Origin: an uncultured Bdellovibrionales bacterium | GTDB lineage: Bacteria; Patescibacteriota; Minisyncoccia; Moranbacterales; GWC2-37-73 | Assembly (NCBI GenBank): GCA_964609855.1 | Contig: CAZSTB010000003.1 | Location: forward strand, 4,305-68,304 | Reading direction: 5' to 3' | DNA length: 64,000 bases | Shown: positions 9,240 through 53,231 of the stretch, piece after piece | Layout: every line of letters starts with the position of its first letter | Numbering within the stretch: position 1 is the stretch's first letter | Notes under the pieces: model-generated | The model's database searches: none | What the model saw: only the letters and a program-made list of their open reading frames with translations | Told to the model about the DNA's origin: nothing | Translations under genes and position numbers: made by a program

Positions 9240-9776
9240 TTACTTGGATGATTTCTTACCCTCCTTACGGCGAACATGTTCACCAACGTATTTAAATCCT
9301 TTTCCTTTATAGGGTTCAACTGGTTTCAATGCGCGTATATTTGCAGAAAACTGTCCCACTTTGTGTTTATCAATTCCAGCTACTGTCATTGTATTTCCTT
9401 CAATTGTAACTTCTAGATCCTGAGGAACTTCAACTACAACCGGATGTGAGAATCCCAATGCAAGAGTAATTGTCTTACCTGCAATTGCCATACGAAAACC
9501 AACTCCGTTAAGCTCAAGTTGTTTCTTAAAACCATTCACTGTTCCTTCAATCATGTTTTCAATCACGCGAGCAGTCGTTCCCCAAATAGCAGGAGCGGTT
9601 TTGCTTTTGCTGATTTTTTCTACAGTAAATTCATTTTCACCGAAATTAAGAGAAACATCTACATGATGTGCGAAAGTTAACGTTCCCTTAGGTCCCTTAA
9701 CGGTAACGATATTCTTATCGACTGTTACGTCCACTCCCTGAGGGATAGCTACTGGTTTTTTTCCAATTCTACTCAT
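9240..9776 (-). CDS. rplF: 50S ribosomal protein L6
   Basis: MSRIGKKP ... two L6 repeats; operon position. Confidence 0.9.
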   Translation of the reverse strand: MSRIGKKPVAIPQGVDVTVDKNIVTVKGPKGTLTFAHHVDVSLNFGENEFTVEKISKSKTAPAIWGTTARVIENMIEGTVNGFKKQLELNGVGFRMAIAGKTITLALGFSHPVVVEVPQDLEVTIEGNTMTVAGIDKHKVGQFSANIRALKPVEPYKGKGFKYVGEHVRRKEGKKSSK

Positions 9777-21165: not shown

Positions 21166-21258
21166 TTAACATGTCATGCTGAATTCATTTCAGCATCTAT
21201 GATTGCTAAAAGCATTTCTAGATCCCGAAACAAGTTCAGGATGACATGTTGATAATTT

Positions 21259-23502: not shown

Positions 23503-24098
23503 TATATTTTAAAATTAAACCATTTACTTAGGACTTCATATTGTTTTTTGACCAACACTTTCTCATCTTCAAAATATATTTTGGCGTTGTAATCGCGTTC
23601 AATTTTTTGGGAATTTTTTTCCAAAATTTCAGCAAAATTTTTATTAGAATATTTTCCAATCCAGAGGTAAAAGGGAGGTAAAAAATGCGCCATTGCATCT
23701 GCTGAGGCAATAATCTTCTGTTCCAATGTTTCAGGTAGGTAATTTCTGCAGCGATGCCTAAGCACAATACCTTTAACTTTTTCTGCAACTTCCACATCAA
23801 AACCTTTTTCTAAAAGAAATTTATATGCTTTTTCTGACCCAATTTCATCATGAGGCTCTGCATCTTCAAGCCTGGCGATATCATGAAGCATTGCGCCAAG
23901 CCAAACAGTCTCTAAGTCAGCATTATATTTAACAGCTAGCTGTTTACTGTATTCAATAACTGGCTTGAGATGAATATTCCAGAATAATTTATAAAATTCC
24001 TTTGTTTCAGCATTAGAGAAACTATGTTTTTCAATTCTTGGATTATAATGTAAATCCTTTATCTCTTCTTCAATTTTTTCAATATTGTCTTGATTCAT
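23502..24098 (-). CDS. HD-domain phosphohydrolase
   Basis: H...HD motif (LHDIARLED) and size ~200 aa. Confidence 0.6.
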   Translation of the reverse strand: MNQDNIEKIEEEIKDLHYNPRIEKHSFSNAETKEFYKLFWNIHLKPVIEYSKQLAVKYNADLETVWLGAMLHDIARLEDAEPHDEIGSEKAYKFLLEKGFDVEVAEKVKGIVLRHRCRNYLPETLEQKIIASADAMAHFLPPFYLWIGKYSNKNFAEILEKNSQKIERDYNAKIYFEDEKVLVKKQYEVLSKWFNFKI

Positions 24099-24180
24099 AT
24101 TTTATTGTAACAATTAATTTTCCTTTCTTTGATCAACTAAACCGCCCATATATTTTGCTTTATAAATTTCTTCCCCATTA

Positions 24181-24780
24181 TTAAACTTTCTCAAAACTAT
24201 TTTCATTCAAAAAACTTTTCACAGCATCTAGAGGTTTCAGCTTGATGTATGTTTCGCGGTAGTCATCTTCCGAAAGAGACGACCGCGTAACAGCATACCC
24301 GTTTGGAATAAATATTTTGTCCCAACCGAAACCGATAGTGCCAGCTGGTTTTTCTGCAATACTGCCCTGAAGTTCACCTTCAAATAGTTTCAGAGTTTCT
24401 CCATCGTAATATCCAAAGACGCAGCGCGCGATTGCGGCCCTGTCTTTTCCATCCAGCAAACCGCAGAGCGTCTCCTCGCTATTTTCTTCAAGAAAAAATT
24501 TTATGAACGGTCCTGGCAATCTGCCGAGCGCAGAAAACTCCAAAGCCACATCTTCAACAATAACCGGCTTTTTTATTTTTTCATATGCCTGCCTAACTTT
24601 GTGCTCGACAATTTCGCGTAAATCCAATGACTGAATTTCATCTAAATCTATTTTTACATGATCAATCGGGATTCCGATATATTTGCATAAATAGTCCGCC
24701 TTATTCTGATTTCCGGTTATAAATGTCAAATTGATATCTGCTGCCATATTTCTATAATCACCGTGCAAATTCAAGCACAA
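24181..24780 (-). CDS. rdgB: non-canonical purine NTP pyrophosphatase (RdgB/Ham1 family)
   Basis: FITGNQNK ... E..AL...K motifs; the likely start is MAADINLTFITGN. Confidence 0.7.
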   Translation of the reverse strand: MCLNLHGDYRNMAADINLTFITGNQNKADYLCKYIGIPIDHVKIDLDEIQSLDLREIVEHKVRQAYEKIKKPVIVEDVALEFSALGRLPGPFIKFFLEENSEETLCGLLDGKDRAAIARCVFGYYDGETLKLFEGELQGSIAEKPAGTIGFGWDKIFIPNGYAVTRSSLSEDDYRETYIKLKPLDAVKSFLNENSFEKV

Positions 24781-24927
24781 TGGTTTATTTTAATTTATAG
24801 TAATTCTAGGTGGGTATTTAAATACCCACCCATCCATACACCAAGACTACTCTCATTATCTACATCAATCAAGATATAGCAAAAGGCCGGAAAATTTCCG
24901 GCCTCTGAATTCATATTCAATACAACC

Positions 24928-26703
24928 CTAAAACTTTTGCTTCTCCCAAAGTTCATATAATCTACCTTTTGCCGCATATAGCTGCTCGAAATTTCCTGAT
25001 TCCAAAACCCTGCCTTTTTCAATCACTATGATTTTGTCCATTTCACGAATCGTTGTGAGTCTATGCGCAACAACGACCGCCGTAACTTTTTTGAGAAATT
25101 TATGCAGGGAATCCTTAATTTTCTCTTCCGATTCCATATCCAAGTGCGATGTAGCCTCATCCAAGAATAATATTTCCGGCTTTTTATAAACTGCCCGCGC
25201 AATCCCAAGGCGCTGTCTCTCGCCGCCTGAAAGCTTGACCCCTTTTTCACCGATAAAAGTTTCAAGTCCTAGTGGAAGTGTCTGCGCGAATTCTGCCACA
25301 TGCGCAATTTCCAGCGCTTTCAATAAGTCATTTTCACTGCGCTTTTTCGAACTGGCAATCGTAATATTTTCTCGCAGCGTAAAATTGAAAACTTCAGTAT
25401 CCTGCAGAACCACCCCGACATGGTCGAAATATGACTTCTTTCTGATTTTTTTCAATGAAAGATTGTCGAAAAGTATTTCGCCTGTGTAACTCTCATTCTC
25501 CTTGAGCAAAAGTTTCAGTAGTGTGGATTTTCCCGAACCGGAAAGACCAACTATTCCGATGCGCTCGCCTCTGTTTATCTCAAAAGAAATATTTTTTAAA
25601 ACTTTATTTTTTCCGTACGCGAAAGATAAATTCTTAACTGTCATTTTTTTCCAATCGGATGGTAAAGCAACTTTGTTCTTGTTGCTATCGATGGTAATTT
25701 TCTCATTCAAAGTTCTCTGCATTCTCGCAATCCCGTATTTGCGGATGATCAAATCCTGCATAGTATCTGACAATTCATCAACTGATTGAACCAGACTGTT
25801 AAAATATCCATGAAATAAAATCAGCACCCCAACTTCATACTGGCCCCTGGAAATTCCGTACACAATTAGAATCATTATCCCGATTCTAAATCCGGAAGAC
25901 CACAAATTCAATATTCCTGCTCGCGATTGAAAACGCAGAATCCTGTGCCTGATTTTCCCAAAAAGCTCATTAATTTGAACATTGATTATCTTTAATATTC
26001 GCTCTGTCATCGCGAGCACTTTCACGCTCCTGATATTATTGATTACCTGGAACATAAGGCCGGATATGCCCTCTTCCATAAGGTCGACTTCTTGAGAGAC
26101 TCGCACTGCTTTTTTCAACAAATAAAACGAGATGGCAAAGTAACTGAATAGAAAAATGAGCATCGATTCTCCCACTTGTCGATCAACTTTACTGAGAATG
26201 AAAATCATACCGACGAAATTCACACCGATCGAAATATAGTTATTAATCCACATCGCCAAAATGCGATAGATTCCATCAGAACCTTTCTGAATTCTCTTGA
26301 GCTTGTTTCCGGCATTTTCCTTTTCATGCCAAGCGATATCAAGAAATGAAAGTTGGCTGATCATTTTGACCTGAGAATCAAGTGCTACTCTTTCGGCAAC
26401 TTGATAGCCGACATACTTTGACATGTATTTGCAGACATGACCGACAATGTATGCCAAAGACAAGGCGGCAATAATTTTCCAGAAATATTCTAAGGAATCG
26501 CCTGGCTTAAATTTACTGAAAAAAGTCACAATCAGCGCAAATCCATAAACAGGAAAAAGATTTATCACATCGCTGATAAATCGCAGCAATGAAGCAATAA
26601 AAAAGCGCCATCTGTATGGTTTCAAAAATATTCCAATATCCCTTATCAGTTCTCGATTGGAATATTCAATAAAATCAGTTTTTACTTCTTTATTTTCTTT
26701 CAT
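24928..26703 (-). CDS. ABC transporter, fused permease/ATPase (type I exporter, MsbA-like)
   Basis: 6-TM domain followed by Walker A GLSGSGKST, LSGGERQRLGIARA and Walker B ILFLDEATS. Confidence 0.85.
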   Translation of the reverse strand: MKENKEVKTDFIEYSNRELIRDIGIFLKPYRWRFFIASLLRFISDVINLFPVYGFALIVTFFSKFKPGDSLEYFWKIIAALSLAYIVGHVCKYMSKYVGYQVAERVALDSQVKMISQLSFLDIAWHEKENAGNKLKRIQKGSDGIYRILAMWINNYISIGVNFVGMIFILSKVDRQVGESMLIFLFSYFAISFYLLKKAVRVSQEVDLMEEGISGLMFQVINNIRSVKVLAMTERILKIINVQINELFGKIRHRILRFQSRAGILNLWSSGFRIGIMILIVYGISRGQYEVGVLILFHGYFNSLVQSVDELSDTMQDLIIRKYGIARMQRTLNEKITIDSNKNKVALPSDWKKMTVKNLSFAYGKNKVLKNISFEINRGERIGIVGLSGSGKSTLLKLLLKENESYTGEILFDNLSLKKIRKKSYFDHVGVVLQDTEVFNFTLRENITIASSKKRSENDLLKALEIAHVAEFAQTLPLGLETFIGEKGVKLSGGERQRLGIARAVYKKPEILFLDEATSHLDMESEEKIKDSLHKFLKKVTAVVVAHRLTTIREMDKIIVIEKGRVLESGNFEQLYAAKGRLYELWEKQKF

Positions 26704-26907
26704 TTCTAAATTATACCATACTTCTTTCGTGTGCTGAAACTGTTGACTTCCAACTATTTTCTAATATCATATACAATCGGTATAGGAAATTTATCGATAA
26801 CATCCCCGATATCAAATGGAGCAAGCAGCAATTATCCCACCATGGAAACACGGCGGGATTTTTTATAATTAATTATTGCTTTCTAATTACAATTAAAGAG
26901 TTATTCA

Positions 26908-27165
26908 CTAATTAGGGCTCTCTGTTATTTTGCATGGTAGTTTCTTTGTCATTCCGAGCGAAGTGAATCGACCAAAGGGAGATGAGCGCAGTCGAGGAAT
27001 CTGAGTTAATATACTTACAAAATCTGGTATTAAATGCGGATCCCTGCGCCACAGCTAAAACCAAAGGCGGCATGCGGTCGGCTACATTCCTCCGCTACCG
27101 CGTCGTCATTTTGCTCGGGATGACAAAATAATAAAAGGTCGGTTAGTGTAGTGCCCTATTTAATT
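26908..27165. ncRNA. candidate structured ncRNA of unknown class (GC-rich, ORF-free, closed by 12-bp helix)
   Basis: GTCATTCCGAGC (26948-26959) pairs with GCTCGGGATGAC (27113-27124); outer complementarity 26908-26920 / 27153-27165; several internal complementary segments; strand unknown. Confidence 0.35.
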
Positions 27166-27233
27166 GACTAGCAACCAATTTTGAAATATATTTCAATCAG
27201 CTCTTAAAAAAAATTACATAGGGAGGAAGCGAT

Positions 27234-27608
27234 ATGCTATATCTTATTTTCATCAGCTTTTTTGGCCTACTCATTCACCTCGCAGCCGGTCACAGCGCCA
27301 CACATATTGCCAAAGATTTCATTGGCGGTGCAATTATTTTGATCGGCGGCTTAACCTCAATTTTCTGCATCAGAATGGGCTTGCAAATTCGCAAGATTCC
27401 ATCCCAACTTTGGCAGCGAAATCAACAAGCGGCAAAATTAGCCAGGAAAGCAAACCGTCGCGAAAAATTAAACGAAGCCGAAAAAATCGCAATCCACCGG
27501 CTGATAAAAGAACGCATCCTTATCGCAACTCCCTGTGTATTAAATAAGCAATGCTTCATATACTTAAAACTTTCCGACGCGGCAATTAACAATATTTTAA
27601 GATATTGA
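27234..27608 (+). CDS. hypothetical small membrane protein
   Basis: SD GGGAGG 6 nt upstream of ATG; two predicted TM helices then a basic C-terminus. Confidence 0.45.
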   Translation: MLYLIFISFFGLLIHLAAGHSATHIAKDFIGGAIILIGGLTSIFCIRMGLQIRKIPSQLWQRNQQAAKLARKANRREKLNEAEKIAIHRLIKERILIATPCVLNKQCFIYLKLSDAAINNILRY

Positions 27609-27755: not shown

Positions 27756-29843
27756 CTATTTCTTAGCAATAATAGTGTCTGCAACATTCTTTGGAACTTC
27801 GCTATACATTGCAAATTCCATTGAATAACTTGCGCGACCTTGGGTCATTGAACGCATTTGAGTTGCATATCCGAACATATTTGCCAACGGCACTTCAGAT
27901 TCAATTTCTTTCACGCGTGCATTTCCTTCTCCGCGGTCATTGATTTCTTTGATCATTCCACGACGCGAGTTGATGTCTCCAACAATGTCACCCATGAATT
28001 GTTCCGGACAAGTAACCACAACTTTCATGACAGGTTCCAAGATAACAGGAGTAGCGCGTTTTACAGCTTCTTGAACTGCTAGTGAACCAGCAATTTTGAA
28101 AGCAGCTTCAGATGAATCGACTTCATGGAAAGATCCATCGTAAAGAGTAACTTTTACATCAACCATTGGATATCCGGCAAGTACACCGTTTTCCAAAGCT
28201 TCCTTTGCTCCCATGTTAATCGGTTTGATGTATTCTTGTGGAATAACACCTCCCTTAATTTCGTCGAAGAATTCATATCCCTTACCTTTTTCATCTTGAG
28301 GGGCAACTTTTAGCCAGCAATGACCATATTGTCCGCGTCCTCCAGACTGACGAACAAATTTTCCTTCAGCTTGCGCTTCAGATTTAATTGTTTCGCGGTA
28401 AGCAACTTGTGGTTGACCAATGTCAGCTTCAACTCCGAATTCGCGCTTCATACGATCAATAATAATATCAAGATGAAGCTCACCCATTCCGGAAATAATC
28501 GTTTGTCCTGATTCTTCATCAGTTCTAAGACGAAGTGTCGGGTCTTCGCCAGCAAGTTTTCTAAGGGCTAATCCCATTTTTTCCTGGTCAGCTTTAGTCT
28601 TAGGTTCAACTGCAATATCAATCACAGGTTCTGGGAATACAATATTTTCCAAAACGATCTGCTTTTGTTCATCTGAAAGTGTATCTCCAGTAGTAGTGTT
28701 TTTAAGACCAACCAAAGCTCCAATTCCTCCAGCTCTAATTTCATCAATTTCTTCGCGGTGATTTGCATGCATCTGCAAGATTCGCCCGATACGTTCTCTT
28801 TCACCTTTAAGTGAATTGATAACATAACTTCCAGCTTTAAGTGTTCCAGAATATACGCGGAAGAAAGTAAGTTGTCCAACAAACGGGTCAGTTGCAACTT
28901 TGAAAGCCAAAGCTGAAAATGGTTCGTCGTCAGATGCAGCGCGAGTAACTTCTTCTCCATTTTTTGGATTCACACCAACAACAGCTGGCACGTCCAATGG
29001 TGAAGGAAGATAATCAACAACAGCGTCCAATACTAATTGAACTCCTTTGTTGCGAAGCGCAGTTCCAGTGAAAACAGGAACAAGCTTTGCAGCAATTACT
29101 CCGCTGCGAAGTGCAGCTTTAAGTTCATCAATTGAAATCTCTTCTCCATTCAAATACTTTTCAGTAAGCTCATCATTTGTTTCAGAAATTTTTTCAACCA
29201 TCTTCTCTCTCCATTGTTGAGCTTTTTCCAAAAGCTGCTCAGGAATTTCACCCTCCACAACAATTTCTCCCATCGGTCCGTCGAAAGAATAAGCTTTCAT
29301 TTTTACCAAATCTACAACACCAGAAAATTCATTGCGTTCTCCGATTGGAATTTGAAGAGCAACAGCATTCGGAGTCAAACGATTCCAAATTGAACCAAGC
29401 ACGAAATCAAAGTCAGCACCTTCCTTGTCGATTTTGTTTACGAAACAAATTCTTGGAACGTGATATTTGTCAGCTTGACGCCATACGGTTTCAGATTGCG
29501 GCTCAACACCTTCCTTACCATCAAAAATTACCACTGCGCCATCCAAAACGCGAAGTGAACGTTCAACTTCCACTGTGAAGTCTACATGTCCCGGTGTATC
29601 GATGATGTTGATAGGGTGACCTTTCCATGCACATTTAGTTGCAGCAGAAGTAATGGTAATTCCACGCTCCTGTTCCTGCTCCATCCAGTCCATAGTTGCT
29701 GCACCTTCATGTACTTCACCAATTTTGTGAGTAATACCGGTATAGAACAAAATACGTTCAGTAGTTGTAGTTTTTCCACCATCGATATGAGCGATGATTC
29801 CAATATTTCTCAATTTTGAAATGTCGTTGATCTGGTCTGACAT
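27756..29843 (-). CDS. fusA: elongation factor G
   Basis: [21 protein letters not shown] motifs; 695 aa. Confidence 0.95.
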
Positions 29844-32320: not shown

Positions 32321-32393
32321 TAGTTTTCAGAAAACTTTAAAAAAATTCCTTACCCTCAGGTAAGGAATTTTTTGTCATTCAGCTTAAGCTGAA

Positions 32394-32597
32394 TTATTCT
32401 CGCTTGAAAGCTCCGACTGCAAAAATCAAATACAGACCAGCCAAACCTACAAGGTCATAAATCAATCGCGACAAAAGCGACATCTCCCCGAAAAGCTCTG
32501 CCACCAAATTGTAGTTGAATAGACCCACGAAACCCCAGTTTATTGCTCCCACAATCACTAAAACCATGGCAACCCAATCCAAAGCTGTTATTTTCAT
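32394..32597 (-). CDS. DUF378 family small membrane protein
   Basis: VLVIVGAINWGFVGLFNYNLVAELFG matches the DUF378 consensus. Confidence 0.55.
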   Translation of the reverse strand: MKITALDWVAMVLVIVGAINWGFVGLFNYNLVAELFGEMSLLSRLIYDLVGLAGLYLIFAVGAFKRE

Positions 32598-49653: not shown

Positions 49654-49989
49654 ACGCGTAATTTTTAATTTTGAATTTTTAATTTTAAATGAATTTCCAA
49701 TGACAGAATTTTCAAAACCCGTTTACTATGTCATTCTGAATTTATTTCAGAATCCACCTTCTTCATTTCAGCAAATTTTCTCCCAGCAAAATATCCCTAA
49801 GTAAGTCCAGAATGACAATGAGTTATTTTTTAGCTCAAATAAAGTAATTATCAATGTAACACCTTTTTACGCAATTCTTCTCCGACAGGGAGAGAAAAAT
49901 GAATAAATCTTAAGATTACGTACCCAAAACTCTTGAAATAAATTTTACATGTAATGATTTTGTTTCCACATTTCTTTTTCCGCAAAAGA

Positions 49990-50290
49990 AACCTGGAGGA
50001 AAGAAAACTCTCGCACGGAGTTCGCACTGGCAAAATTGCTACGCTCGCTCGCTAAATTTCCTCGCGCAAAAAAGTCGCAGAAGGAATTTTGCTGAGAAAA
50101 TTTATAACACTCCCTCGCTGCAATTTTGAAACGCGCTCCTAGTGCGAATTTAAATACGGAAATACAAAATGCAAAACGTTATCATATTGGAAACTTGCCT
50201 CTCCGCCCATTGCGTTAGTGCGTTTCAAAATTCACGATTGCGAGCGTTAAAAAATTACTTTTGGAGCGTAGCGGAATAGTAATTTTAGTG
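49990..50290. ncRNA. candidate structured RNA / regulatory region within the 960-bp nrdG to nrdD-mini-gene spacer
   Basis: multiple 7-9 bp long-range complementary pairs (50022-50029/50141-50148; 50039-50047/50264-50272; 50127-50133/50220-50226); GC-richer; no convincing ORF. Confidence 0.3.
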
Positions 50291-50615
50291 AGCAAGAGTA
50301 AGAATTTTGTCAGCACAAGCTAGGGCGGGACTTTCTTTTGTTACTTTTCCTTTCTAGAAAGAAAAGTAAATTTAAATATACGTCAACAATAAGAGTACAA
50401 ACCAAATTTAATTCAGTAAATAAATCAGTGAATAAAATCCTGGATTCCGGGTCAAGCCCGGAATGACAATTCTGTAAAAAACTTTCTATCATTCCCAAGC
50501 TACTTTTAAAATCCTACACTCAGAGATCCTGAAACAAGTTCAGGATGACAGCTAGAATTGAGGGAATTCGAGGCAATCCATGAAAGATTGCCTCGATATA
50601 TTCCCAGATCTTTTT

Positions 50616-50879
50616 CTAAGCGCAAACGCAGCCTGATTCCACTACATATTCATTGCGGTCTGCAAATTCCGCCTGCTTACCTTTGTTCCATTGAGTCACG
50701 GGACGAATGTAGCCGACAACTCTTGAATAAACCTCAGTAGGTTGGAAATTTCTCAGCACGCTGTCAGCTTGGTGACAAGCTTTGCATTTGTTGTAAATCT
50801 CAGCTCCTACCTTGTACGGCATATATTCCTCATTGCTCTCGATTGTTTTCCCACAATCATGACATGTGTATTTTTCCAT
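50616..50879 (-). CDS. stand-alone NrdD C-terminal-like domain: Zn-ribbon plus glycyl-radical motif (RVVGYIRPV), 87 aa
   Basis: 27 of 30 residues identical to the NrdD C-terminus (EVYSRVVGYIRPV.QWNKGKQAEF.DR); about 80% DNA identity between 50651-50738 and 51024-51110; intact CxxC...CxxC and clean ATG start. Confidence 0.6.
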   Translation of the reverse strand: MEKYTCHDCGKTIESNEEYMPYKVGAEIYNKCKACHQADSVLRNFQPTEVYSRVVGYIRPVTQWNKGKQAEFADRNEYVVESGCVCA

Positions 50880-50969: not shown

Positions 50970-53231
50970 CTATTTTTTCTTCTTATCTACCGTTTCCACT
51001 TCGCATTTTCCGTTTTGAAATTCCTTGCGGTCTCCAAACTCAGCCTGCTTACCTTTATTCCACTGCTCCACTGGACGAATATAGCCAACCACGCGAGAAT
51101 AAACTTCAGTCTTTTGCTCTACCACACATTTTGGACAAATGTGCTGCTCACCTGGAATATAACCATGAACCGGACAAATGCTGAATGTTGGAGAAAGTGT
51201 GAAATACGGAAGTGCATAATTCTCAGCGATTTTTCTTACCAGATTCTTCACCATTTGAATGTCCCAAATTCTTTCCCCTAAGAATCCATGAAGAACAGTT
51301 CCTCCGGTATATTTTGTCTGAAGATTATCCTGCAAATCCAGAGCTTCAAAAATATCCTCCGTGAAATGAACTGGGAGTTGCGAAGAGTTTGTGTAATAAG
51401 GTTCTCCGCCATTTTCTTTGACTGCTTTGTCATTTGCGAAAATGATATCCGGATATTTAACTTTATCAAGTCTTGCTAAGCGATAAGCGGTTCCTTCTGC
51501 AGGAGTTGCCTCCAAGTTGTAAAGATTACCTGTTTCTTCTTGGTAACCTGTAATGCGCTCTCGCATATGCACCAAGATTTCTTCAGCCAAGGCTTGTCCC
51601 TCCGGACTCGTAACTTCCTTACCGATAAGATTCAATAATCCCTCATTCATTCCGACCAAACCGATTGTTGAAAAGTGATTTGCCCAATATTGTCCCCTGC
51701 GCATCTTAATCGCATCTAGATAATATTTTGTATATGGATATAATCCTTGCTCAGTAAGACCCTCAACAAGTTTTCGCTTAGTCTCCAAGCTTTCCTTTGC
51801 AAGATCAGTAAGTGCATCCAACTCTTTGAAGAATTCTTTCTTATTTTTTGCTCTGTATCCAAGTCTTGGAAGATTGATAGTTACAACTCCAACTGAACCA
51901 GTCAGTGGATTTGCTCCAAAAAGTCCTCCTCCGCGCTTATGAAGTTCGCGATTATCCAATCTTAGGCGGCAGCACATGGAACGAGCATCATCAGGATCCA
52001 TATCTGAATTAACGAAGTTTGCGAAATATGGAATACCATATTTAGCGGTCATTTCCCAGATAGGATCGAAGCGGTCATCCTCCCAATTAAAATTCTTGTC
52101 GATGTTATAGGTTGGAATCGGGAAAGTGAAAATTCTTCCGCTTGCATCTCCTTCAGTCATAACTTCGGCAAATGCACGGTTGATCATATTCATTTCTTCC
52201 TGAAATTCTCCATAAGTTTCCAATTGCGGAGCACCACCGATGATCACTGCTTCTTTTGCTAAATTCTTCGGAGCAGTAATATCCATCGTAATATTGGAAA
52301 ACGGAGTTTGAAATCCTACACGCGTAGAAACATTCATGTTAAATACGAAAGACTGAATTTCCTGCTTTACTTGTTGGAATGAAAGCTTATCGTAACGAAC
52401 GAATGGGGCAAGCAAAGTGTCAAAGTTTGAAAATGCTTGAGCGCCGGCAACTTCTCCCTGTAAAGTGTAAATGAAATTCACCATTTGTCCGAGAATACTT
52501 CCGAGATGCTTAGCTGGTCTGCAGGCTACCTTTCCTGGAACCCCAGTGAAACCTCTGCGAAGTAAGTCTTGCAAATCCCAACCACAGCAATAAGCAGCAA
52601 TAAGTTGCAAATCATGAATATGGAAGTCTCCACCTTCATGCGCAGCTCTGATTTCTTTAGTGTAAACCCGGTTCATCCAGTACTTACTGCTAACTATGGA
52701 AGCGATGTAATTATTAAGTCCTTGCAAGGAATATGCCATATTAGCATTCTCCTTAACTTTCCAATCTATCTCTTGAATATATTTATCTACAAGACTCACG
52801 GCCTCATCCAGGGATTGCTCAGTTTCTCTGATTTTGCGATGTTGTTCGCGGTAAAGAATATATGCCTTGGCTGTTTCCTCGAAATCTAAAATCATCAGCA
52901 CGCGCTCAACCAAATCTTGAAGTTGTTCGATTGTTGGGATATCTCCTTGCTTGTAATTTTTGTTCAAGATTTGAACAACCTTGTCGGAAACTTTAGCAGC
53001 TTCAACTTTTCCACCCTCTCCTGTAATCGCCAAAGCTTTACTCACTGCAATAGTAATTTTTTTAGGATCAAAGGGAACTACGCGTCCTGATCGTTTTACA
53101 AGTTTTTTCACCATGTTCTTAGTCTTTGCAGGTTTTGCTTTTACCAGAGAAACTTGAGACGCTATCTTTTTCACCGCCACAATCTTTTTCTCACCCTTTG
53201 TTGAATTTTTCTTTGTTTTTGCCATATCCAT
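50970..53231 (-). CDS. nrdD: anaerobic ribonucleoside-triphosphate reductase (class III)
   Basis: N-terminal ATP-cone, C-terminal Zn site CPVHGY...CPKC, glycyl radical motif RVVGYIRPV; 753 aa. Confidence 0.9.
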   Translation of the reverse strand: MDMAKTKKNSTKGEKKIVAVKKIASQVSLVKAKPAKTKNMVKKLVKRSGRVVPFDPKKITIAVSKALAITGEGGKVEAAKVSDKVVQILNKNYKQGDIPTIEQLQDLVERVLMILDFEETAKAYILYREQHRKIRETEQSLDEAVSLVDKYIQEIDWKVKENANMAYSLQGLNNYIASIVSSKYWMNRVYTKEIRAAHEGGDFHIHDLQLIAAYCCGWDLQDLLRRGFTGVPGKVACRPAKHLGSILGQMVNFIYTLQGEVAGAQAFSNFDTLLAPFVRYDKLSFQQVKQEIQSFVFNMNVSTRVGFQTPFSNITMDITAPKNLAKEAVIIGGAPQLETYGEFQEEMNMINRAFAEVMTEGDASGRIFTFPIPTYNIDKNFNWEDDRFDPIWEMTAKYGIPYFANFVNSDMDPDDARSMCCRLRLDNRELHKRGGGLFGANPLTGSVGVVTINLPRLGYRAKNKKEFFKELDALTDLAKESLETKRKLVEGLTEQGLYPYTKYYLDAIKMRRGQYWANHFSTIGLVGMNEGLLNLIGKEVTSPEGQALAEEILVHMRERITGYQEETGNLYNLEATPAEGTAYRLARLDKVKYPDIIFANDKAVKENGGEPYYTNSSQLPVHFTEDIFEALDLQDNLQTKYTGGTVLHGFLGERIWDIQMVKNLVRKIAENYALPYFTLSPTFSICPVHGYIPGEQHICPKCVVEQKTEVYSRVVGYIRPVEQWNKGKQAEFGDRKEFQNGKCEVETVDKKKK

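Follow-up and report, generated by a model that had tools for sequence, protein, structure and literature searches.

Repetitive extragenic palindromes (REPs) with a CGTC tag were defined by Di Nocera, De Gregorio & Rocco 2013 (BMC Genomics 14:522; PMC3733652) as units that carry a CGTC, TGTC or CCTC tag, an 8–9 bp stem with A-T and T-A at its first two positions, a loop of 4–5 nt and a CCA-like tail; they occur mostly as head-to-head dimers with the tags outside, and no dedicated transposase is known for them. The spacers of these dimers measure 20–100 bp and are in some cases structured, the stem/loop format has exceptions with other loops, and the repeats were found in species of five phyla, mostly Alphaproteobacteria, with Neisseria dRS3 and Rickettsia RPE-4/RPE-6 among the members (PMC3733652). 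About half of the dRS3 copies are the longer Neisseria Transformation Sequence (NTS), CGTCATTCCCGCGMAVGCGGGAATCYRG. The 94-aa GIY-YIG protein SsnA binds NTS when it is single-stranded, and in no other form, and makes its cut a few bases upstream; binding hinges on the C that follows the palindrome, and cutting on the three bases that precede it (Nat Commun 2025;16:2388; PMC11893778). Across phyla ssn genes are flanked by Ssn-related motifs (SRM), and the effect of the system in Neisseria is that less transforming DNA becomes integrated (PMC11893778). Here we describe an element at positions 26945–27127 of a 64-kb stretch of the 81.5-kb contig CAZSTB010000003.1 (the whole of this stretch is hereafter the window) from a member of the Moranbacteria, within the Patescibacteria or candidate phyla radiation (CPR), which an initial annotation had presented as a candidate structured RNA between an ABC exporter gene and fusA. 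The element is likely a head-to-head dimer of two extended tagged-hairpin units, with tags outward and a spacer of ~63 nt, that is, repeated DNA and not a gene. We assign it to a repeat class with two published descriptions, one as CGTC/TGTC-tagged REPs and one as NTS/SRM, in which the element arms would represent an extended-loop subtype, an unlisted variant.

The units were delimited with R1, a covariance model of alignment A1, which holds 26 extended arms of metagenome origin and excludes the window. The consensus fold of A1 comprises 12 pairs, and compensatory changes are seen at 5 of these. Since R1 matches both ends of the element in mirrored orientation, the element is read as two inverted units. 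The match to the left end extends over the full length of the model with all aligned pairs standard (E 6.6e-16), and its score is within the range of true members, 60–80 bits; the match to the right end, read on the minus strand from 27127 to 27068, is also full length (E 1.8e-5) with two non-standard pairs. The element is thereby divided as follows.

26945–27004, plus strand: left (5') extended unit, R1 match of 61 bits.
26947–26950: TGTC tag of the left unit.
26951–26955 and 26996–27000: closing stem of the left unit, ATTCC and GGAAT, followed by C27001.
Interior of the left unit: GAGCGAAGTGA, a small hairpin, then GAGCGCAGTCGA.
27005–27067: spacer between the units, ~63 nt, with an AT-rich tip and the GCGCAG/CTGCGC helix, lying between the two R1 matches.
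27068–27127, minus strand: right (3') unit, mirrored and more degenerate, R1 match of 26 bits.
27122–27125: TGTC tag of the right unit, GACA on the plus strand.
26945–26966, plus strand: left strand of the inter-unit helix, from the inverted-repeat pair and the folds.
27106–27127, plus strand: right strand of the inter-unit helix, from the same evidence.

The arms of the inter-unit helix, as returned by an inverted-repeat finder, are 22 nt long and 86% complementary, so that the closing helix of 12 bp first proposed is real and longer than claimed; the arms differ at three positions, each of which is a G-T pair on the plus strand. The 18-mer TTGTCATTCCGAGCGAAG, allowing up to 3 mismatches, has only two sites in the window, which are the two arms, against 0.04 expected. 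The reported enrichment in G+C is also borne out (44–50% across 26900–27150, 29–35% in the flanks), and the internal complementary segments GCGCAG/CTGCGC and GCGG...CCGC are paired in the minimum-energy fold. On the plus strand this fold reaches -71.3 kcal/mol (z -5.6) and consists of a long stem bearing two inner hairpins. The minus-strand fold is weaker (-60.7 kcal/mol, z -2.85), since the positions at which the arms differ form G-U pairs on the plus strand. As DNA the fold has a z of -4.06, versus -5.6 as RNA. In the left unit the first stem positions pair (A26951-T27000 and T26952-A26999), the closing stem has 5 bp and the interior of ~40 nt is conserved and branched; in the right unit the AT is kept and the partner side is degenerate. 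A second, outer complementary pair had been proposed at 26908–26920 and 27153–27165. It comes down to ~5+5 bp, bulged and AT-rich, and the repeat finder did not report it, giving nearby only an AT-rich 11-mer (26890–26900 and 27156–27166); we regard the outer pair as chance and take 26945–27127 as the element proper. The element had also been described as free of open reading frames (ORFs) of any size. Two do overlap it, of 49 aa (26982–27131, plus strand) and 53 aa (26912–27073, minus strand); neither spans it, neither has a Pfam match, and there is no record of either as a called gene.

The family to which the arms belong is dispersed in metagenomes. A 16-mer, GTCATTCCGAGCGAAG, recurs in contigs of a viral collection, often several times per contig, and often closes elements of 79–250 nt that end in its own reverse complement, with shared ends and differing interiors. 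When the pattern GTCAT-NNN-GAGCGAAGCGA-NNN-ATC was scanned, the free triplets were fully complementary in 108 of 116 simple arms and represented no fewer than nine different pairs, so that every arm is a hairpin in its own right, with a stem that covaries. Scanning metagenomes with the arm variant of the window gave at least 120 loci, many of which have an extended arm made of GTCATYCCGAGCGAAGTGA, a small variable hairpin and GAACGCAGTCGAGGRAYC, which is the architecture of window positions 26948–27001. From high-GC soil bacteria to a Moranbacteria genome of 38% GC, ~30 nt of the extended unit are nearly invariant. Head-to-head dimers that combine a strong and a weak arm, as here, are found at L271, L240, L220, L261 and L212; the spacers of metagenome dimers range from 15 to 94 nt, and arms also occur singly. 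The family forms clusters and longer composite elements: arm fragments are arrayed in tandem at L285:1947-2120 and in L233 near 9485-9600, and L023 and L029 hold elements of 170–250 nt that share both ends and part of the interior. Rfam searches of typical family members returned sub-threshold microRNA-hairpin matches only. The plasmid collection gave no match, the viral contigs gave none to the subfamily pattern, and a literature search by literal sequence strings found unrelated primers only. We also compared the orientation of metagenome extended units with that of neighbouring ORFs (upstream gene co-oriented in 15 of 23) and set this aside, ORF calling at high GC being too noisy. One viral-collection contig with two arms carries an Acido-Lenti-1 RNA (RF01687, 46.3 bits) at L034:5358-5404 on the minus strand, which suggests a host among the Acidobacteria or Lentisphaerae.

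Within the window, following the weaker R1 matches led to a set of short hairpin units. They share one design: TGTC, a stem of 8 bp that opens and closes with AT, a loop of 5 nt, then C. Six pass strict criteria, where 0.19 would be expected and none of 300 shuffles gave more than 2, and they lie at three intergenic places besides the element, giving a total of 8 units at 4 places in the 64 kb.

21173–21197, plus strand: GTC ATGCTGAA ttcat TTCAGCAT C, head-to-head with the next.
21221–21245, minus strand: GTC ATCCTGAA cttgt TTCGGGAT C, partner of the preceding unit.
49730–49754, plus strand: GTC ATTCTGAA tttat TTCAGAAT C, tail CCA.
49792–49816, minus strand: GTC ATTCTGGA cttac TTAGGGAT, one stem mismatch, head-to-head partner of 49730–49754.
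50443–50467, minus strand: GTC ATTCCGGG cttga CCCGGAAT C, tail CAG, folding with z -4.3.
50525–50549, minus strand: GTC ATCCTGAA cttgt TTCAGGAT C.

The stems of the short units covary (GCTGAA, CCTGAA, TCTGAA, TCCGGG), and the head-to-head pair at 21173–21245 folds with z -4.5. When the element was compared with the window by BLAST, no further copy came up; BLAST misses the short units because too few fixed bases are shared. In TGTCAT, the tag is joined to the opening bases of the stem of this dispersed repeat, and the recurring GAATGACA motif noticed in the initial annotation is these hairpin units. A possible seventh short unit lies at 32373–32394. About 100 kb of related Moranbacteria and Parcubacteria contain almost no short units, with a few degenerate ones in L036.

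The region that holds four of the short units has features of its own. Positions 49654–50615 form a gene-poor stretch of ~960 nt with no Rfam match, within which 49981–50062 shares 82% identity with a segment of an 88% relative (L321:5505-5586) that is intergenic and not syntenic, and could be a small conserved non-coding element. The two units in the same orientation (50443–50549) are located 3' of an 87-aa ORF (50616–50879, minus strand). The C-terminal motif (EVYSRVVGYIRPV.QWNKGKQAEF.DR) of the adjoining 753-aa ORF (50970–53231, minus strand) recurs in it; by sequence the 87-aa ORF looks like a separate small copy of the C-terminal region of the larger one, which in turn has the appearance of an anaerobic ribonucleotide reductase.

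When compared with the CGTC-tagged REPs, the units of the window agree in several respects. An unpaired TGTC tag is present at 26947–26950 on the plus strand, at 27125–27122 on the minus strand and in all six short units, and the stem starts with A-T and T-A in the left unit and in all six short units. The element is a head-to-head dimer with a ~63-nt spacer, and further pairs of this kind are found at 21173–21245 and 49730–49816. The published class has many dispersed, mostly intergenic copies per genome; the 64 kb covered here hold 8 units at 4 intergenic places. The six short units have the family 2 format, with a stem of 8 bp and a loop of 5 nt. The tail is always C-initial (CTG in the left unit; CCA, CAG-type CCA, CTA, CTA and CTC in the short units), the published consensus being CCA. 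Unlike the described members, these repeats reside in a host of the Moranbacteria. The comparison with NTS/SRM also yields likenesses. The GTC 5' of the palindrome and the C 3' of it are invariant in A1 and present in the window units, NTS itself having (C/T)GTC, and the window unit 50443–50467 (TGTCATTCCGGGCTTGACCCGGAATCCAG) is nearly NTS (CGTCATTCCCGCGMAVGCGGGAATCYRG).

The arms are physically associated with small nuclease genes in other loci. Among 233 loci fetched for their arms, six (L234, L313, L305, L297, L214 and L189) carry a single-domain GIY-YIG ORF of ~92–110 aa with the motif YFVYI...LYTG.TN..RRV.EHK, and for one of these the Pfam GIY-YIG match has an E of 1e-16. All six ORFs are 40–195 nt from an arm of the GAGCGAAG type, some of them directly behind a head-to-head dimer. 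This arrangement, with element-type arms directly beside small single-domain GIY-YIG genes in 6/6 loci, resembles the NTS-ssnA-NTS arrangement. SsnA belongs to the subfamily cd10448; the ORFs beside the arms are placed at the level of GIY-YIG/Ssn-like. An Ssn-like query against the protein database returned Bacteroidota proteins only, a result uninformative on CPR. Many GIY-YIG homologues are on very short contigs, as expected beside repeats.

Several observations weigh against placing the element in this repeat class. The element units have a closing stem of 5 bp and an interior of ~40 nt, unlike the 8–9 bp and 4–5 nt of the published format, and the element lies between divergent gene starts, the rarest position for a REP in the published survey (PMC3733652). 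The published SRM string, HGTCWYN(0-2)YYVSBRHN(0-5)WNVSBRGN(0-2)RNCYNB, has 0 matches in the window, with NTS matching as a positive control; the string fails on the short units and on the GAGCGAAGCGA-type arms. No ssn/GIY-YIG gene was found in the 64-kb window, ~5% of the genome, by tblastn or with a profile of 46 Ssn-like sequences. R1 found no second extended unit in the window, and the exact 22-mer of the left arm, GAAGTGAATCGACCAAAGGGAG, gave 0 matches in genome and metagenome collections. Finally, the left unit alone is unstable as single-stranded DNA (-3 kcal/mol, z +1.45), and in the predicted folds the stable structure is the inter-unit stem, not the left unit by itself.

Other mobile repeats show part of this pattern. 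Miniature inverted-repeat transposable elements (MITEs) are likewise short and non-coding, with inverted ends, a variable interior and multiple copies, and a MITE-like element had been among the initial suggestions. That suggestion was right in so far as the element is a dispersed repeat with inverted ends; its form is a hairpin dimer of the REP/SRM type and not a transposase-type MITE. A classical MITE would have arisen from an insertion sequence by deletion and would be mobilised by a DDE transposase that recognises its terminal inverted repeats, and the members of 79–250 nt that share ends and differ inside, with several copies per contig elsewhere, could be read in this way. However, no target-site duplication is found, as the TTT and AAA flanks prolong the palindrome and do not form a direct repeat, likewise in other copies. 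Each end folds on itself into a hairpin whose stem covaries, and such hairpins also occur singly, a pattern of REP/SRM and not of a transposase-binding inverted repeat. Besides, a transposase-like partner was not seen, the gene beside the arms being a GIY-YIG nuclease. We consider a classical MITE highly improbable.

REPIN-RAYT systems are GTAG-tagged REP doublets mobilised by Y1 HUH transposases. The element resembles them in that two inverted REP hairpins jointly form a longer hairpin, and in being non-autonomous, with units that would act as single-stranded hairpins beside a conserved tag. It differs in its tag, TGTC instead of GTAG, and in the partner gene of the other loci, a GIY-YIG nuclease instead of a Y1 transposase.

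The following features border or occupy the gap in which the element lies.

24928–26703, minus strand: ABC exporter gene, whose start borders the gap.
27756–29843, minus strand: fusA, whose end borders the gap.
27234–27608, plus strand: 124-aa ORF inside the gap, preceded by the GGGAGG Shine-Dalgarno sequence that had been noted.

The gap measures 1052 nt, with the element upstream of the 124-aa ORF. The promoter scan gave two promoter-like sites on the plus strand, TTGACT-16-TATCAT at 26743–26770 and TTGACT-17-TATATT at 27164–27192, the latter 3' of the element and 5' of the 124-aa gene. A terminator-like hairpin, ATCCCACC...GGCGGGAT followed by a T run, is found at 26835–26868, between the first site and the element. 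No promoter-like site was detected between 26870 and 26945, nor a terminator after 27127. The site at 26743–26770 and the hairpin at 26835–26868 could yield a transcript of ~90 nt in the interval from the ABC exporter start to the element; this candidate (26743–26868, plus strand) folds no better than shuffles and has no Rfam match.

These data bear on the proposal that the element is a structured non-coding RNA, be it 6S-like, like the signal recognition particle RNA or cis-regulatory. Rfam 15, which covers 6S, signal recognition particle RNA, riboswitches and others, gave 0 matches at gathering score across the whole 64-kb window; at E<=10 nothing meaningful appeared within the gap, with only a chance snoRNA-like match in the element. 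A stand-alone small RNA gene would make, from the plus strand, a three-way-junction RNA of ~185 nt. In its favour, the plus-strand fold is better than that of the minus strand, and the three arm differences, all G-U on the plus strand, weakly hint at selection on a plus-strand transcript, which is a further point against repeated DNA; three transitions on the same strand, however, arise by chance about 1 time in 4. The stability of the fold stems from the palindromic repeat arms and is accounted for by membership of the repeat family. There is no Rfam match, no promoter-like site directly before the element and no terminator directly after it, and the element is in no relative compared. The assembly ends described below suggest that part of the population is without 111 nt of the interior. 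Taken together, these observations make a stand-alone RNA gene very unlikely.

A cis-acting regulator, whether as a 5' leader, a DNA cruciform or an insulator, could act on the orphan 124-aa membrane-protein gene, on the divergent ABC exporter or on both. The element does lie between the two divergent gene starts (26703 and 27234), the promoter-like site at 26743–26770 could read through it, and REP dimers have been proposed elsewhere as RNA elements (PMC3733652). Nevertheless, the site at 27164–27192 is better placed for the 124-aa gene and lies downstream of the element, which would therefore not be in the leader of that gene, and the terminator-like hairpin separates the upstream site from the element. 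Among 5.8 billion proteins none is homologous to the 124-aa protein, which belongs to no Pfam or NCBIfam family, so that there is no conserved pairing of gene and element; relatives, in turn, retain the ABC exporter without it. A regulatory role at this locus is thus very unlikely.

Ribosomal protein S7 encoded in the window clusters with proteins named Candidatus Moranbacteria / Patescibacteria. A fusA-based locus search gave two useful relatives among 80 loci. In L323 and L324 (72% identity in the ABC exporter) fusA is followed directly by the exporter, with a spacer of 195 nt (L323:9806-10000); L321, an 88% relative, has two unrelated ORFs in the spacer (L321:257-1599), and the fusA relatives L035 and L036 have other genes there. 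The element was not found in any of these five loci, contrary to what a conserved RNA gene would lead one to expect. These comparisons show the fusA-ABC exporter spacer to be variable, with both the element and the orphan 124-aa gene specific to this lineage. The spacer differs wholly between Moranbacteria, as a lineage-specific insertion hot spot inside the str operon region.

A strain that is 97.7% identical and comes from another sample (L320) has a left half of the element identical to that of the window, and its sequence ends at 27006, within the element. Over window positions 23647–27006 all 78 differences from L320 fall in 23737–25279 and none in 25280–27006. The left half of the element is therefore inside a difference-free block of 1.7 kb, and its identity in L320 is uninformative on selection; the mosaic pattern suggests a recent recombination. 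Logan contigs with identical flanking genes stop at 26994 in three runs, and in two runs they start at 27102. Both positions fall on a short direct repeat.

26991–26994, plus strand: GTCG direct repeat, copy 1, at which three independent Logan assemblies stop exactly.
27102–27105, plus strand: GTCG direct repeat, copy 2, at which two Logan assemblies start exactly.

These ends fit a 111-nt deletion allele (26995–27105) between the GTCG repeats in the population, deduced from the assembly ends and not observed: an allele joining 26994 to 27106 would, with 31-mers, give exactly those two contig ends. Other copies sharing at least 30 nt could also cause the breaks. Should the deletion allele exist, some of the population can do without the interior, and the reading as an RNA gene would be further weakened.

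The same ends speak to an invertible switch, in which the 139-nt segment between the inverted repeats would flip a promoter toward either divergent gene. Such a switch would agree with inverted repeats that flank a short segment between divergent genes, and with assemblies from four runs that break inside the element. Inversion predicts, however, that sequences diverge at ~26967–26972, or at 27001 through the inner GAGGAAT/ATTCCTC, while the contigs run to 26994 and resume at 27102, exactly as predicted by deletion between the GTCG repeats. There is no invertase gene nearby, and the segment holds no promoter-like site except a weak 9-of-12 match at 27103–27132. We rejected the switch, which is extremely improbable, as its predicted break points do not fit.

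For the head-to-head dimer of tagged hairpins, a mode of action can be proposed by analogy with SsnA and NTS of Neisseria (PMC11893778). When the DNA is single-stranded, during replication or as incoming transforming DNA, the units would fold, mainly onto each other as a stem of 22–26 bp. The hairpin would be bound by a small GIY-YIG nuclease of the Ssn type, whose gene would lie elsewhere in the genome; binding would need the C after the palindrome, cutting would depend on the GTC before it, and the nick would fall a few bases upstream on a single strand. Recombination of incoming DNA near such sites would be limited, and the same nuclease action may also spread the repeats. On this analogy any activity of the element would most likely be that of a single-stranded DNA hairpin, with a small GIY-YIG nuclease as the protein that recognises it. 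At the present site, between divergent gene starts, the copy has most likely been carried along as a passenger, with no role tied to a particular gene. It is also possible, though we hold it as a tentative idea that may well prove wrong, that the extended unit, GTCATYCC followed by GAGCGAAGTGA, a variable hairpin and GAACGCAGTCGAGGRAYC, is a distinct, uncatalogued and very widespread structured motif of single-stranded DNA, recognised by its own branch of small GIY-YIG (Ssn-type) nucleases.

Altogether, one candidate RNA gene of a CPR genome is discarded as false, and the recurring GAATGACA motif is accounted for. An abundant subtype with a physical link to small GIY-YIG genes escapes the published SRM string, and motif counts across bacteria are therefore underestimated. 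In practical terms, hairpin dimers of this kind break short-read assemblies and may be polymorphic. The repeat class is extended to the Patescibacteria; if a cognate nuclease exists there, this would bear on the control of uptake-driven recombination in ultra-small, probably naturally competent cells. Should the extended unit prove to be a distinct motif, CPR bacteria, which are minimal, DNA-scavenging cells, would use Ssn/SRM to police the recombination of incoming single-stranded DNA.

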